Shown: one piece after another, positions 630 to 10,361 of the stretch
How the letters are laid out: each line of letters opens with the position of its first letter
Numbering within the stretch: position 1 is the first letter of the stretch
Notes under the pieces: generated by a model
What the model saw: only the letters and a program-made list of their open reading frames with translations
What the model was told of the DNA's origin: nothing
The model's database searches: none
From: a virus
Lineage: Duplodnaviria; Heunggongvirae; Uroviricota; Caudoviricetes
Length of the DNA: 12,737 nt
Virus record (IMG/VR): IMGVR_UViG_2526164663_000020
Strand: one strand, 5' to 3'
Program-made: the position numbers and the translations under genes

Positions 630-656
630 TGAGGTGTACTGGCAATAGCGGACACT
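630..656. repeat. IS600 terminal inverted repeat, left end in window coordinates
   Basis: TGAGGTGTACTGGCAATAGCGGACACT; imperfect inverted match to 1866..1892. Confidence 0.7.
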
Positions 657-671
657 ACCATTTGTTCTTTT

Positions 672-1490
672 TTAAGCAGCCATCTGATGATATTTTTCCC
701 TGAAGGCTGCCGGGGAGATATTCCCCAGACGAGAGTGACGACGCTGACGATTGTAGAAAATCTCAATGTATTCCCGTATTACTGAGATGGCTTCATCCCG
801 GTTATTAAAACGATAGTGGCTCAGGCTCTCATTTTTCAGCGTTCCCCAGAAGCTTTCCATCGGAGCGTTGTCGTAACAGTTACCTTTACGCGACATTGAT
901 GTTTTCAGACCAAACTGCTCCTGTATGACCCGGTAATCGTATGCGCAGTACTGTGAACCTCGATCAGAGTGGTGGATTAGCCCGGCAGGTGGGCGCTGGC
1001 TCCTGAGCGCCATAAACAGAGCTTTACCTGTCAGCTCTTTTGTCATGCGCTCTCCCATGGCGTAGCCGACAATTTCGCACGTATAAACATCTTTGATGCC
1101 AGCGAGGTACAACCATCCCTCCTGTGTGGCAACATACGTCAGGTCCGCCACCCAGACCTGATTTGGTGCTGTAGGAGCGAACGTCTGGTTCAGCAGATTT
1201 GGCGCAACTGGCAGATTGTGGTTCGAGTTCGTAGTCGCTCTGAACTTGCGTTTCTGCTTACAGCGTAGCCTTAGCTCCTTACGAAGACGTGCCAGTCGGT
1301 CACGACCAACGATGATGCCATTCTCTGCCAGCTCCGTCTGGAGCCGCCGGGTTCCATATGTTTCGCGAGTGCGGATATGTGCCACCTTAATCTCCAGTTT
1401 TAGCCGCTCATCACTTTGTTTTCTGTCTGAGGGTTCATGCTGTACCCAGTTGTAATAACCGCTCCTGGATACACCAAATACCTGACACAT
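672..1490 (-). CDS. IS600 orfB, the DDE transposase catalytic portion; probably expressed as an OrfAB fusion by -1 frameshifting rather than from the Met at 1490
   Basis: 272-aa ORF with the IS3-family integrase core (…HSDRGSQYCAYDY…, …SMSRKGNCYDNAPMESFWGTLKNE…). It lies in the -1 frame relative to orfA. An A7 run then G (plus-strand T-run 1571..1577) near the end of orfA gives a slippery A-AAA-AAA-G site. Confidence 0.85.
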   Translation of the reverse strand: MCQVFGVSRSGYYNWVQHEPSDRKQSDERLKLEIKVAHIRTRETYGTRRLQTELAENGIIVGRDRLARLRKELRLRCKQKRKFRATTNSNHNLPVAPNLLNQTFAPTAPNQVWVADLTYVATQEGWLYLAGIKDVYTCEIVGYAMGERMTKELTGKALFMALRSQRPPAGLIHHSDRGSQYCAYDYRVIQEQFGLKTSMSRKGNCYDNAPMESFWGTLKNESLSHYRFNNRDEAISVIREYIEIFYNRQRRHSRLGNISPAAFREKYHQMAA

Positions 1491-1525
1491 CGCTTCAATG
1501 GGAAATTGTTGTCGCCATTGTTCGA

Positions 1526-1828
1526 TTAACGCGTATTTTTCAGCGACTCCTGTGCAAAATACGCTGTTGCTTTTTTTAATATATCTCGCTCAAGGCGAGC
1601 TTCATTTAACGCCTTACGCAGTTGCAGAATTTCAGATTCCAGTTCAGCCACCGTGCGGGAACCAGGAGTACCGAGCCCTTTTCTGGCGGCGGTAACCCAT
1701 TGTCCTAAAGTGCCTTCAGGAAGAGATAATCGGGAAGCGCCTTCACTGATCGAAAGTTGATTTTCAAGAACCGTTCTGACAGCTTCGGCTTTGAACTCTT
1801 TAGAGTAACGTTGGGTTTTTCTGCTCAT
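1526..1828 (-). CDS. IS600 orfA, the HTH DNA-binding component of the transposase
   Basis: 100-aa ORF MSRKTQRYSKEFKAEAVRTV…LERDILKKATAYFAQESLKNTR, with the HTH and leucine-zipper layout typical of IS3-family OrfA. Confidence 0.85.
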   Translation of the reverse strand: MSRKTQRYSKEFKAEAVRTVLENQLSISEGASRLSLPEGTLGQWVTAARKGLGTPGSRTVAELESEILQLRKALNEARLERDILKKATAYFAQESLKNTR

Positions 1829-1865
1829 TATTAGCTCCTTCTGATGCCATTCTATTTCAGGAAGG

Positions 1866-1892
1866 AGTGTCCGTTAAACTCAGGCTACCTCA
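1866..1892. repeat. IS600 terminal inverted repeat, right end in window coordinates
   Basis: …AGTGTCCGTTAAACTCAGGCTACCTCA; ends with CA immediately before the CAA duplication. Confidence 0.7.
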
Positions 1893-3539: not shown

Positions 3540-3667
3540 GGTAGCCGGATTAGCCTTGGCAACAAAATCCCGGACTGGCTTACAATCAATCTCCGCAATG
3601 GGTTGATACGATGTGTAGCCATGCTGTCTTGTATAACTACCGTGACGAATAACGAAAAATCACCATT

Positions 3668-7288: not shown

Positions 7289-7672
7289 TCACCTCGCCGT
7301 CAGTTGTTTTGATTTCCGGTAGCCTGCCGCGTAAATGGCTACGTTTGGAAGACATACACCAGTTTCTGGTTGCTTATGTCCAAACTCATTCGCGTACACA
7401 ATGGCCGCTCGCTCCAGATTGCGTCTGTATTCTTTCTGTTGCCAGATCACGTCCTGTGCCATGAACTTAATTGGCTTAGCGTCTTCTATGCGCTCAGGCG
7501 TTTCGTGAGTACCTTTAGCCTGAATCTGCGCTCTGCTTAGAGTAGGGCGGTGTAATACTTCTGAACTTATTGCTTCTTCGCGGGCCAGTACGCCGTTAGC
7601 TAATGCCTTTGCCTTTAAACGCTCACGACGACGAGAACGTGAATTGCCTTTGAACTGAGTTCTGCGTGTCAT
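7289..7672 (-). CDS. N: N-type transcription antiterminator, P22 gp24-like
   Basis: 127 aa with an N-terminal arginine-rich motif (GNSRSRRRERLKAKALA) and a C-terminus …LPNVAIYAAGYRKSKQLTAR matching my recollection of P22 gp24 (…LPGVALYAAGHRKSKQITAR). GGAGG lies before the ATG at 7670..7672. Confidence 0.8.
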   Translation of the reverse strand: MTRRTQFKGNSRSRRRERLKAKALANGVLAREEAISSEVLHRPTLSRAQIQAKGTHETPERIEDAKPIKFMAQDVIWQQKEYRRNLERAAIVYANEFGHKQPETGVCLPNVAIYAAGYRKSKQLTAR

Positions 7673-7859: not shown

Positions 7860-8140
7860 TCATATTCGAATCGTTGTATATTCACCGCCCTGGTGAGTAA
7901 TGCGTCCTGCTGATGGGTGAACTTTATCGGAGTGATAAATTAATGGCAATAGCAAAATGATAAATTCTCTTGGTTTTCAAATATCGTATTGATTCTTATG
8001 GTGTTTTATTTTGTTGTAGGAATTCGACAGGATAAATAAAGAGATTTGAGGGAGATCTGGATTGCGTTGTTTAGCAAGTTGTATCTATTTATTTTTCAAC
8101 AAATACAATTGGTTATGTGTTTTTAGGTGTGGGGATCGTG
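7860..8140 (-). promoter_or_regulatory. Putative PL promoter and OL operator region
   Basis: AT-rich non-coding stretch between the tImm-like terminator and nutL. Contains the motif (T/G)GATAAAT at 7933..7940, 7958..7965 and 8030..8037 and a palindrome TTTATC-N5-GATAAA at 7924..7940; the same motif family recurs between cI and cro. The -35 and -10 elements were not pinned down. Confidence 0.4.
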
Positions 8141-8171
8141 AGGCAAAGAAAACCCGGCGCTGAGGCCGGGT
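8141..8171 (-). terminator. Intrinsic terminator on the minus strand (tImm-like) ending the cI/TAC transcript before PL
   Basis: Minus-strand RNA: ACCCGGC-cucagc-GCCGGGU followed by UUUCUUUG (stem 8152..8158 with 8165..8171), 8 nt after the stop at 8180. Confidence 0.7.
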
Positions 8172-8179
8172 GGGGAATT

Positions 8180-8584
8180 TCACTTATTACTGTTCGTTTC
8201 CATGGGATTGGCCAAGAAATCAAAATAAGGCAGAGTGAACCTACCAAGGTTTGACATGAGGATAATTTGCTCGGCATATGTTTTTATATAGGGATATGCC
8301 ATATTGGGAGCAATGGACCTTACCTCATATGATTTTGCCATTTCATGAGAAAAATCATCTTCTGACCGGAAGTCAAAGTCGTATGTGATGTCCATCTCAA
8401 GCCTGCCTTCAATAGTTACGGAGGCAAAATATCTCACTCTAAATAGCTTTGAATCCTTCACATTAGTGTAAAGTTCATTATTTAGATTAACGGTTGTTTT
8501 TATGGCTTTTTTTGCTGTTGAATCGCCTTCTAGCCGTGTCATAACCAAGCGTTCAACTTTTTTGCTAATGAGTTCAATTTTCAT
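8180..8584 (-). CDS. SecB-like chaperone, putative third component of a toxin-antitoxin-chaperone module
   Basis: 134 aa. The segments FRVRYFASV and APNMAYPYIKTYAEQIILMSNLGRFTLPYFDF parallel E. coli SecB LRVTVTAS and [33 protein letters not shown] as I recall them. Weak RBS. Lies 82 nt downstream of the antitoxin gene on the same strand. Confidence 0.6.
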   Translation of the reverse strand: MKIELISKKVERLVMTRLEGDSTAKKAIKTTVNLNNELYTNVKDSKLFRVRYFASVTIEGRLEMDITYDFDFRSEDDFSHEMAKSYEVRSIAPNMAYPYIKTYAEQIILMSNLGRFTLPYFDFLANPMETNSNK

Positions 8585-8666
8585 GGTAATAATAAGTAAT
8601 TTCCGTCAGAAGTCATTTCGTCATTCAGGTTGCTAGCCGCTGTGAAACTTGATGACAAGTTACTTA

Positions 8667-9236
8667 TCAAAGAAAAACATTCCGTTTTTCTTTGCATTTG
8701 CCATTACCCCTTACTGCGCTGAACAACATTTTTGAAAAGTAAGATTCTGTAGCCTTTTCAGCGAAATAAGCAGAAGGTGATGTGACGGCTGACTCACACC
8801 GAGCAATGACGCTAGTCATGGCTGTTTCTTCTTCCTCTGCGTCAACTAGGCTCCATTCAATTGCGCTCATATCTTGAATTAAGATATCTGCAGGAATTCC
8901 AAGTCCGTCATGTAGTCTACGGATCATTGAAAGACTTAATGGACGCTTACGATTTAAGACCTCAGATACTTTAGATGCTGAGCCAATGTATTGTTTCATA
9001 TCGGCATAAGAGAGGCCTTGTTGATCCATACGGAACTTGATTGCTTCTATGGGATCTGGCTTGTCCATAGGGAACTCGCGTGACTCATAGTGCTCGATAA
9101 GCAAGCCTAGTAGTTCAAACTCATCAAAATCTTCAGTTCCAGGTTGTAAATCACTAGACGCAAGTTCAATGAGCCTTTCCATAGCTGCAGCATGCTCTTC
9201 ACTATTTTTAATGATGCGCCAGCTAGTTCGATTCAT
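8667..9236 (-). CDS. HigA-like HTH antitoxin with a C-terminal extension of about 70 aa
   Basis: 189 aa. The start overlaps the toxin stop by 4 bp (ATGA). The central segment …MKQYIGSASKVSEVLNRKRPLSLSMIRRLHDGLGIPADILIQ resembles the HTH region of E. coli HigA as I recall it. The tail (…SPSAYFAEKATESYFSKMLFSAVRGNGKCKEKRNVFL) is absent from canonical HigA. Confidence 0.65.
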   Translation of the reverse strand: MNRTSWRIIKNSEEHAAAMERLIELASSDLQPGTEDFDEFELLGLLIEHYESREFPMDKPDPIEAIKFRMDQQGLSYADMKQYIGSASKVSEVLNRKRPLSLSMIRRLHDGLGIPADILIQDMSAIEWSLVDAEEEETAMTSVIARCESAVTSPSAYFAEKATESYFSKMLFSAVRGNGKCKEKRNVFL

Positions 9237-9520
9237 TTAAGCCTCCACTTGTCGTACTCTGCATGAGTTCCAACTCTTTCAACTATGACCATTCCTGCCT
9301 GGTAAACAACTTGGACAACGAGCCGATAGTTATTGCCTTTTATATTAAAAATTACCCTGTTGTTAGGAAGGAAGTCGGCAGAATTAAATCTATTCCGTAT
9401 GTCTTGAGTCGTTTTCCAGTTTTCTCTTATCACTTCATCATACCAAGAGTCTAAAGCCCCCTTGGCCTGATTGTGCTTCCGGCTAAAACTGTGAAGCTTC
9501 TCTACGTTTAAGACCTTCAT
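9233..9520 (-). CDS. HigB-like (YgjN-type) RelE-fold mRNA interferase toxin
   Basis: 95 aa. The C-terminal half …NNRVIFNIKGNNYRLVVQVVYQAGMVIVERVGTHAEYDKW resembles E. coli HigB as I recall it. The toxin gene precedes the antitoxin, as in higBA operons. Confidence 0.7.
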   Translation of the reverse strand: MKVLNVEKLHSFSRKHNQAKGALDSWYDEVIRENWKTTQDIRNRFNSADFLPNNRVIFNIKGNNYRLVVQVVYQAGMVIVERVGTHAEYDKWRLK

Positions 9521-9532
9521 AATCCGATTTTG

Positions 9533-9574
9533 TTCCCTCTTTGGGAATTATAGATTCATTTCCCATAAAGGGAA
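9533..9574 (-). promoter_or_regulatory. Promoter of the TAC operon with two palindromic candidate operators
   Basis: Palindromes TTCCC-N5-GGGAA at 9533..9547 and 9560..9574 flank a perfect minus-strand -10 TATAAT (plus-strand attata at 9547..9552), about 27 nt upstream of the toxin ATG. The -35 element is weak or unclear. Confidence 0.6.
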
Positions 9575-9656
9575 TCTGTATTTTTATCCAGAAATGCTAT
9601 GTACATCACCCAAACGTCTCTTCAGGCCACTGGTTACCAGCTATGTGACGATGAAG

Positions 9657-10361
9657 TCACGAACTTTTCAGCCACTCCCTTGCCTCGATGTCATCCAGAT
9701 GGCGAGATTGCTTCAGAATACCAGCCACATACTCCACCTTTGCTACTTGATGATAAGGCAACGTTATTGGCCTGTGGTCCTGGTTGATGCTTGTAAATTG
9801 GTATTCTCCGTCTCTGTCATAGCCAAGAACTTTGATCATGTTGTGTCCTTCAACAGTTCTGACAAACACCTCATCACCCGGGAATACTTTGGTGTTAGGC
9901 TCAATGAGTACATATTCTCCTGATTTTATTCTGGGCCACATGCTGTCTCCTTTCACACGAAGACCAAAGGCATCTGGATCATCGCTATAAATTTTGAGCC
10001 ACCCATCGCGCTCTTCGGTCATCTCGATGGCACCATCAACACCAAGAATTGCCTCACCAACCACGCGCACTAACCCTTTTCTTACCTGACCGACAAAAGT
10101 TAAAGAATCTGAGCATGATGCAATTGGTGTTACATCATGTACCAAATCAAGCCACCCATTAGGTAACCCAAGCGCGGCTTCAAATTTTCTTGCTAGTTTA
10201 TCCCCTATGTTTCGAGTGCTTTTTTCACCGGAGACTTGCGTGAGTTGAGAAGGGCTAACCCCAAGCTTATCGGCAAAGCTTGCATTAGTGTTACCCGCGA
10301 TTTTTTTATGCTCATCTAGCAAAAACGCCAGATTCGATTTGCGAATATCTTTGTTTTCCAT
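9657..10361 (-). CDS. cI: cI-type prophage repressor (N-terminal HTH, C-terminal S24 LexA-like autopeptidase domain)
   Basis: 234 aa with an HTH region (…FADKLGVSPSQLTQV…) and a C-terminal GDSMWP motif typical of S24 self-cleaving repressors. Divergently arranged with cro. Confidence 0.85.
   Translation of the reverse strand: MENKDIRKSNLAFLLDEHKKIAGNTNASFADKLGVSPSQLTQVSGEKSTRNIGDKLARKFEAALGLPNGWLDLVHDVTPIASCSDSLTFVGQVRKGLVRVVGEAILGVDGAIEMTEERDGWLKIYSDDPDAFGLRVKGDSMWPRIKSGEYVLIEPNTKVFPGDEVFVRTVEGHNMIKVLGYDRDGEYQFTSINQDHRPITLPYHQVAKVEYVAGILKQSRHLDDIEAREWLKSS

Follow-up and report, generated by a model that had tools for sequence, protein, structure and literature searches.

The C-terminal tail of a prophage HigA antitoxin as a probable chaperone-addiction domain, and the origin of its short reading frame

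Why does a HigA-like antitoxin encoded by a prophage carry a long C-terminal tail, and is the end of that tail, as read, the true end of the protein? The question is raised by higA in a 12,737-nucleotide stretch of viral DNA (IMG/VR record IMGVR_UViG_2526164663_000020; hereafter the window, to which all positions refer). As read, higA is an open reading frame (ORF) of 189 aa on the minus strand (8667–9236): residues 1–121 (8874–9236) form a core made of an N-terminal helical hairpin and a helix-turn-helix (HTH) domain, and residues 122–189 (8670–8873) form the tail. An initial annotation, made from the sequence, had proposed that this tail is the chaperone-addiction segment of a toxin–antitoxin–chaperone (TAC) system, and every computational test of this proposal was positive. 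We consider it very probable that the tail is the chaperone-addiction domain (ChAD) of a HigBAC phage-defence operon and that the 189-aa end comes from a 1-nt deletion, most likely a sequencing or assembly error, the functional protein having 218 residues. The gene order, the SecB fold of HigC, the core with its disordered tail, the co-occurrence of tail and chaperone, the conservation of the anchor residues and the near-identity to a published allele were computed here. The chaperone dependence, the binding and the triggering by the phage lambda protein gpV are taken from the literature on the allele of E. coli NT1F31.

The HigA tail and its chaperone

The first 121 residues of HigA correspond to the canonical HigA antitoxin. 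The HTH domain spans residues 67–118 (Pfam HTH_3), and HigA of E. coli K-12 (PDB 5IFG/5YCL, 138 aa) aligns to residues 53–119 and ends there (E 4e-5), in agreement with the earlier statement that canonical HigA stops shortly after the HTH. The AlphaFold2 model is confident over this core (predicted local distance difference test, pLDDT, 88–96 for residues 11–120), with helices up to residue 119. The published primer for deleting the ChAD, prTM0090, terminates the construct at Q121, and the homologues of 118–135 aa stop a few residues past the motif ILIQ, without a tail.

Positions 8670–8873 encode residues 122–189 exactly, and the two peptides quoted from the tail in the initial annotation are both present in the translation. 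This segment is the in-frame first two-thirds of the ChAD and holds three aromatic anchors, W128 (8853–8855), F158 (8763–8765) and F188 (8673–8675), all on the minus strand. The remainder, residues 189–218 of the reference protein (SLISNLSSSFTAASNLNDEMTSDGNYLLLP), was found by three-frame translation at 8584–8672 of the same strand, out of frame in the window; it includes the fourth anchor, Y214 (8596–8598). The extension beyond the HTH is real, and the figure of about 70 residues given for it holds for the ORF as read, but the true tail, that of the reference protein, has 97 residues.

No Pfam domain was found in the tail, which is predicted to be disordered: the pLDDT falls below 50 from residue 131 and lies between 33 and 42 over residues 131–218 (model of the 218-aa protein, 37 sequences). 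In an alignment of 62 tailed homologues of 200–235 aa, the most frequent residue of a column accounts on average for a fraction of 0.36 of the sequences in the tail and of 0.78 in the core; yet an aromatic residue stands at position 128 in 98% of these homologues and at position 214 in 95%. These alignments indicate that the extension is a feature of the family rather than a chance addition. A simple scan with an aggregation scale gave hot spots around each anchor; they include 187–199 and 213–218, which are those removed by the frameshift described below. The tail had been expected to be aggregation-prone unless bound by the chaperone, but the protection reported for HigC is against proteolysis and not against visible aggregation.

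The gene that follows, higC (8180–8584, minus strand), encodes a protein of 134 aa for which a SecB-like (SecB-TA) chaperone is the best description. Its AlphaFold2 model (20-sequence alignment, pLDDT 86.9) has four antiparallel strands and a long helix, past which there is only coil (residues 111–134). The best PDB match of this model by Foldseek is 5MTW, M. tuberculosis Rv1957 bound to a ChAD peptide (template modelling score, TM, 0.73–0.75). The top matches 5MTW, 1QYN and 1FX3 all have a probability of 1.00 (TM 0.65–0.77), the SecBs of E. coli and H. influenzae coming after 5MTW. A PDB search with the HigC sequence returned only noise, as did one with a narrow 20-sequence profile; a 50-sequence family profile matches H. 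influenzae SecB at 2.8e-5. An exhaustive HMMER search gave only 120 representative HigC relatives, and 44 of 50 relatives match Pfam SecB (PF02556). HigC matches the PADLOC profile PD-T4-9_C (CmdC, the SecB-like chaperone of CmdTAC) at 3e-11. The model, the Foldseek matches, the family profile, the Pfam matches of the relatives and PADLOC thus point to a divergent SecB-TA chaperone. Housekeeping SecB differs in that it reaches the Pfam SecB gathering score and lies in a yibN-grxC-secB-gpsA context, whereas HigC does neither and sits in a prophage toxin–antitoxin operon.

The tail and the chaperone occur together. Tailed homologues were reached through the contigs that encode those proteins and through a scan of IMG/VR. 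The 30 IMG/VR phage contigs with a HigC relative all have a HigA of 218–226 aa directly upstream, with an ATGA overlap at 29 of these loci. The order cI, HigB, HigA and HigC homologue (E at most 1e-32) is found for all six diverse tailed homologues (from Serratia, Buttiauxella, Citrobacter, Klebsiella, Pectobacterium and Yersinia), while the two-gene homologues have neither tail nor chaperone. A scan of genome contigs was used as a negative control, since the matches listed are for the most part remote homologues, core-only or fused, and not the tailed ones of enterobacteria. Among the matches listed, it gave 80 species-level loci with a HigA core: about 47 core-only, 31 fusions of ~400 aa and two short-tailed. 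At both short-tailed loci an overlapping ORF of 156–157 aa follows HigA; no SecB-like ORF was seen at the 78 others (the ~47 core-only loci and the 31 fusions among the matches listed). Pfam (6.2e-5, short of the gathering score) and a wide hidden Markov model (HMM) both mark the Xenorhabdus ORF as SecB-like, and the Proteus ORF is its homologue, 44% identical by BLASTP; a narrow HigC HMM had missed both. Several long HigA ORFs (166–230 aa) at the genome loci were set aside as over-extended start codons, not tails.

The HigA core is thus seen in three architectures: alone (118–145 aa), with a short disordered ChAD and then a SecB-like gene, and with a C-terminal fusion of ~280 aa (395–437 aa in all). 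The fusion form, found at 31 of the 80 species-level loci among the matches listed, is PD-lambda-2B-like and phylogenetically very widespread. Xenorhabdus (L037, 2471–3515) and Proteus vulgaris (L012, 2501–3524) carry on the same core a second, unrelated-looking type of tail, with the motif DIEW in Xenorhabdus; this tail pairs with a different SecB-like clade (156–157 aa), which suggests that the chaperone module was acquired or exchanged independently. A locus of Serratia symbiotica (FR904233.1, L128) has a HigA of 128 aa, an ORF of 62 aa in the position of higB (no Pfam match), a downstream ORF of 86 aa and a cI-like repressor nearby; it resembles the remains of a HigBAC operon that has decayed in the reduced genome of a symbiont.

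Relation to the published HigBAC system

The operon has a published counterpart, “HigBAC from E. coli NT1F31”, carried by a lambdoid prophage in which it lies downstream of cI (Mets et al. 2024; bioRxiv 10.1101/2024.02.24.581848). NT1F31 is given there without an accession, and the identity was established via the supplementary primers and DNA fragments. Seven of the nine published cloning primers match the window exactly and two with one mismatch (the cloning primer MT16_terminator_rev lies at 8141–8160, with one mismatch). The mutagenesis primers for W128, F158, Y214, N41, R49 and D71 also match, those for W128A, F158A, N41A, R49A and D71A exactly. Over its first 399 nt, the NT1F31 fragment is 98.0% identical to the window, and higB is 99.7% identical.

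NT1F31 has the same genes in the same order and location, with W128, F158 and F188 of HigA and Y39, N41, R49 and D71 of HigC at the same positions, the four HigC pocket residues being all present in the window. The two alleles differ at HigB position 31 (R in NT1F31, I in the window), at HigA position 186 (Q in NT1F31, R in the window) and by a few intergenic single-nucleotide polymorphisms (SNPs). NT1F31 HigA has 218 aa, with the ChAD at 122–218 and a Leu-Pro end; the ORF of the window stops at 189 and attains this extent when one base is restored. The comparison identifies the tail as what appears to be the ChAD of the published system, in a near-identical allele, and hence as an element already known.

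In NT1F31, HigBA is toxic without HigC, and deleting residues 122–218 of HigA makes the antitoxin chaperone-independent (Mets et al. 2024). W128, F158, F188 and Y214 slot into pockets of HigC (Y39, N41, R49, D71) and mediate recognition; a peptide of residues 121–148 binds HigC with a dissociation constant of 1.3 uM by isothermal titration calorimetry, and the binding is lost with W128A (Mets et al. 2024). HigA is undetectable without HigC, and HigBA remains toxic in clpP, clpX, lon and hslVU mutants (Mets et al. 2024). The toxin is triggered by gpV, the major tail protein of lambda, in competition with the ChAD for HigC (Mets et al. 2024). Thus both experiments suggested in the initial annotation, the truncation of the tail and its binding to the 134-aa protein, had already been published with positive outcomes for the NT1F31 allele, and so had the phage-triggered loss of the contact between tail and chaperone.

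The window system is expected to work as NT1F31 does. The folded core of HigA (1–121) would neutralise the HigB mRNA interferase, and the disordered tail would destabilise HigA unless a tetrameric SecB-like HigC holds it, recognising the regularly spaced aromatic motifs W128, F158, F188 and Y214. An infecting siphovirus protein with the same aromatic pattern, such as lambda gpV, would divert HigC; HigA would then be lost and HigB freed, and translation would stop. The segment would illustrate well the way in which an ordinary antitoxin becomes, through a disordered tail, a phage sensor gated by its chaperone, as was worked out experimentally in 2024.

Other systems share parts of this organisation. 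M. tuberculosis HigB1-HigA1-SecB-TA (Rv1955–Rv1957; Bordes 2016, PMC5105189; Guillet 2019, PMC6377645; PDB 5MTW) likewise combines a HigB/HigA pair with a dedicated SecB-like chaperone. The ChAD at the C-terminus of its HigA1 is unstructured and depends on aromatic residues, and once it is removed the antitoxin no longer needs the chaperone. However, Rv1957 and HigC are only 16–17% identical, and the role of HigBAC is phage defence with a tail-protein trigger. The NT1F31-type ChAD is over twice the length of the HigA1 one, with four repeated motifs spaced by ~30 residues, and lacks a ClpXP-type C-terminal tag (Mets et al. 2024). No significant similarity was found between the ChAD sequences of different TACs. 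CmdTAC/PD-T4-9 (Vassallo 2022, PMC9519451; Vassallo 2024, PMC11618068) is also a prophage-borne TAC defence, with a homologous chaperone and a ChAD-bearing antitoxin; its toxin, in contrast, is an mRNA ADP-ribosyltransferase, its antitoxin is unrelated, and the ChAD of CmdA ends in Ala-Ala and is degraded by ClpXP. The canonical two-gene HigBA of E. coli K-12 has the same HigB family (PF09907) and HigA core fold, but its antitoxin ends at the HTH and there is no chaperone, whereas in the window the antitoxin extends 70 residues past the HTH (97 in the reference) and the third gene is SecB-like. In PD-lambda-2 a HigA-peptidase fusion (C-terminal ~280 aa) takes the place of the ChAD, and the third gene is P4-antitoxin-like, not SecB-like.

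The end of higA and alternative explanations

The 189-aa length had been taken as that of the whole antitoxin. The closest database relative has 218 aa and is 99% identical up to residue 188, and E. coli O26:H11 11368 annotates the higA product at 218 aa (WP_001082382.1), continuing with SLISNLSSSFTAASNLNDEMTSDGNYLLLP. In alignments to the closest genomes, the site of a 1-nt deletion is an A5 homopolymer (8673–8677; T5 on the coding strand), where all these genomes and the NT1F31 allele have A6. The NT1F31 primer for F188A, oKE89, reads GTT[TTT]TCTTTG and matches the window with one deletion and one substitution, i.e. T6 in NT1F31 and T5 in the window. Relative to O26:H11 11368 and strains 6629 and 00_3305, the missing A is the sole difference over the operon (1501 nt). 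The frame shifts after F188, at codon 189, and runs into a premature TGA stop (8667–8669, minus strand). The 189-aa length is thus that of a frameshift product. The shift also accounts for the “basic end” (GNGKCKEKRNVFL), which the initial annotation had described as the C-terminus, for the loss of Y214 and for the broken overlap between higA and higC. In the RefSeq annotation of the three closest genomes the higA stop and the higC start overlap by 4 nt (ATGA; 8581–8584 on the minus strand of the window), whereas translation of higA in the window ends 82 nt before the higC start. The ATGA overlap suggests a translational coupling that would be undone in the window as read. Inspection of the sequence before the higC ATG revealed no Shine-Dalgarno-like motif.

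Is the deletion genuine? Over ~12 kb, the window differs from the closest complete genomes by four 1-nt contractions of homopolymers of 6–7 bases (667, T7 to T6; 3654–3659, A6 to A5; 3669, T7 to T6; 8672–8677, A6 to A5) and by no substitution. Because all the differences are of this kind, the A5 is probably a sequencing or assembly error. The same 189-aa variant is carried by one of the 30 IMG/VR loci. The exact 189-aa protein is found on seven contigs, and a 218-aa form on at least 1000. One assembly carries the variant in each of its three prophage copies, along with fragmented higB genes. The 1501-nt operon query has no match at 100% among 5,426 complete E. coli genomes or among phage records. 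The 189-aa “transcriptional regulator” of a few assemblies would therefore be a frameshifted 218-aa HigA, and only read-level support would justify treating it as a separate variant with a short ChAD. The pattern of contractions resembles platform-specific under-calling of homopolymers, and other ORF boundaries in the window may be affected. We discarded programmed ribosomal frameshifting at the T-run as an explanation: AAT GTT TTT CTT TGA has no X_XXY_YYZ heptamer, and nearly all relatives have the extra base.

A deletion truly present in the source strain is unlikely. It would leave a shortened ChAD with three of the four anchors, without the patch that follows F188 and without coupling to higC, and such a copy might be a locus in decay, or a variant that depends differently on the chaperone or responds differently to the trigger. 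In its favour, the same 189-aa protein comes from four independent samples and one IMG/VR contig. A6 runs are genuine slippage hot spots. Since NT1F31 HigA with Y214A or with pairwise anchor changes is still rescued by HigC, a truncated ChAD could stay viable; F188A only lowered toxicity (Mets et al. 2024). As read, the W128 and F158 motifs would still bind HigC and, the post-F188 patch and Y214 being lost, the tail would be less destabilising. HigC synthesis would drop, since 82 nt separate the end of higA translation from the higC start, in front of which no Shine-Dalgarno motif is visible. However, four contractions in 12 kb, two of them in non-coding or IS (insertion sequence) DNA, with no substitution, are hard to reconcile with a real event at higA. 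The assembly with three variant copies and a fragmented higB is typical of error-prone assemblies; the lack of a perfect match among complete genomes and phage records, and an aromatic residue at the lost position in 95% of the homologues, weigh on the same side. It is more improbable still that the A6/A5 tract at F188 is a slippage-prone switch rather than a sequencing error; if so, the contraction would remove the last anchor and the destabilising patch and uncouple higC, as a heritable and reversible on/off or sensitivity switch of the defence.

Two other explanations concern the tail itself. The tail could be a protease degron, as is the ClpXP tag of CmdA or of M. tuberculosis HigA1, the chaperone acting only indirectly. 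We give this a very low probability, although the absence of detectable HigA without HigC, together with the absence of aggregates, points to proteolysis (Mets et al. 2024) and ClpX-type motifs (Ala-Ala or Val-Ala) terminate other ChADs. The last two residues are Leu-Pro in the reference tail and Phe-Leu in the ORF of the window, neither of the Ala-Ala type; mutation of clpP, clpX, lon or hslVU leaves HigBA toxic, and the tail peptide binds HigC directly, a binding abolished by W128A (Mets et al. 2024). A degron is in any case compatible with the explanation that we favour, the ChAD being then both a destabilising element and a chaperone-binding site. Alternatively the tail could belong to a non-TAC HigA subfamily, as a remnant of the PD-lambda-2B peptidase or as a DNA-binding or oligomerisation module, unrelated to the downstream gene. 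The HigA core does match PADLOC PD-Lambda-2_B at 2.8e-50, and 31 of the 80 homologues among the matches listed are fusions of ~400 aa. But this match joins only residues 5–127 to positions 3–125 of a 402-position profile; the tail has no Pfam domain, is predicted disordered and is poorly conserved save for its aromatic anchors; and its deletion in NT1F31 yields a functional, chaperone-independent antitoxin (Mets et al. 2024). A SecB-like gene follows tailed HigA at all 30 phage loci and at all six enterobacterial loci. The initial annotation had named a conserved tail in a non-TAC subfamily as what would speak against it; what we find is a tail that tracks the SecB-like gene, and membership of such a subfamily is scarcely credible.

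Several points nevertheless weigh against identifying the tail as the ChAD of a working HigBAC operon with a sequencing error. HigC has no Pfam match (E up to 0.1) and none in NCBIfam, remaining below thresholds, so that its assignment to SecB would rest on the predicted fold and on transitive homology. The published experiments bear on NT1F31, a closely related allele and not exactly this one (HigB I31R, HigA Q186R and the intergenic SNPs). A ChAD fusion formed no aggregates without HigC, and aggregation is not the demonstrated mode of instability (Mets et al. 2024). As read, the ORF lacks the fourth anchor, the post-F188 patch and the coupling to higC; were the deletion real, the behaviour of this copy might depart from that of the published system, and the claim of an artefact draws on the pattern of differences.

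The operon in its prophage

The window covers the early/immunity region of a lambdoid Shiga toxin (Stx)-type (Stx1a-type) prophage. Three tightly packed genes of the minus strand, higB, higA and higC, lie between cI and N, which is the position of rexAB. This is the architecture of a TAC: toxin, antitoxin and SecB-like chaperone, co-oriented and packed in a single operon. The first gene, higB (9233–9520, minus strand), encodes a RelE/HigB-type toxin of 95 aa that matches Pfam HigB_toxin (PF09907) at 4.5e-30 and PADLOC PD-Lambda-2_A at 2.5e-42, and its stop overlaps the higA start by 4 nt. The operon end is marked by a terminator-like hairpin of the intrinsic type (8152–8171, minus strand; 7 pairs, 6 of them GC, then a T-run) that starts 9 nt past the higC stop. 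Two palindromes TTCCC-N5-GGGAA, 27 bp apart in the cI–higB intergenic region (9533–9547 and 9560–9574), are plausible candidate operator sites for autoregulation by HigA. A simple scan of 7900–9700 showed no sigma-70-like promoter.

On one side of the operon, an ORF of 127 aa (7289–7672) encodes the N antiterminator (Pfam N_peptide, 2.1e-15). On the other lies a LexA-like cI (9657–10361; Pfam Peptidase_S24), followed on the plus strand by cro, cII and O. At the site of the N gene in O26 genomes, RefSeq annotates only a 69-nt “regulator” pseudogene fragment (comparison locus L001, 2190–2258). The 1.5 kb around the tail are 99.9% identical to E. coli O26:H11 11368 and O157:H7 86-24, and also to phages BP-4795 and ST2-8624 and to many Stx1a-converting phages. 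The host element is a Stx1a-type prophage of O26:H11-like E. coli, with an IS600 at ~630–1892.

HigBAC is present on several Stx phages (BP-4795, the Stx2a phage of O157:H7 86-24 and O26 Stx1a phages), and it occurs in full in about 88 of 5,426 complete E. coli genomes. No homologue of lambda gpV was found by tblastn in two HigBAC Stx phages (KU238070.1, 1–50000, and LC744186.1, 14000–55817); this would fit a carrier prophage that does not encode the trigger of its own defence. RefSeq and Stx-phage records label the trio “helix-turn-helix domain-containing protein”, “hypothetical protein” and “HigB family toxin”. On the Stx phages the HigBAC genes are only hypothetical or “transcriptional regulator”, and in KU238070.1 (ST2-8624) higB has no annotation at all. 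Because of such generic annotation (BP-4795, ST2-8624, O26 Stx1a phages), the link between HigBAC and Shiga-toxin prophages is easy to miss.

Three prophages that are otherwise identical each have IS600 at a different site. The copy in the window (630–1892) is displaced 490 bp rightwards from that in strain 00_3305, and in strain 6629 the element lies between cIII and an ORF of 156 aa (the other copies compared are L002, 4777–6040, and L003, 146–1409). Since the prophages are otherwise identical, IS600 appears to have been recently active in this lineage.

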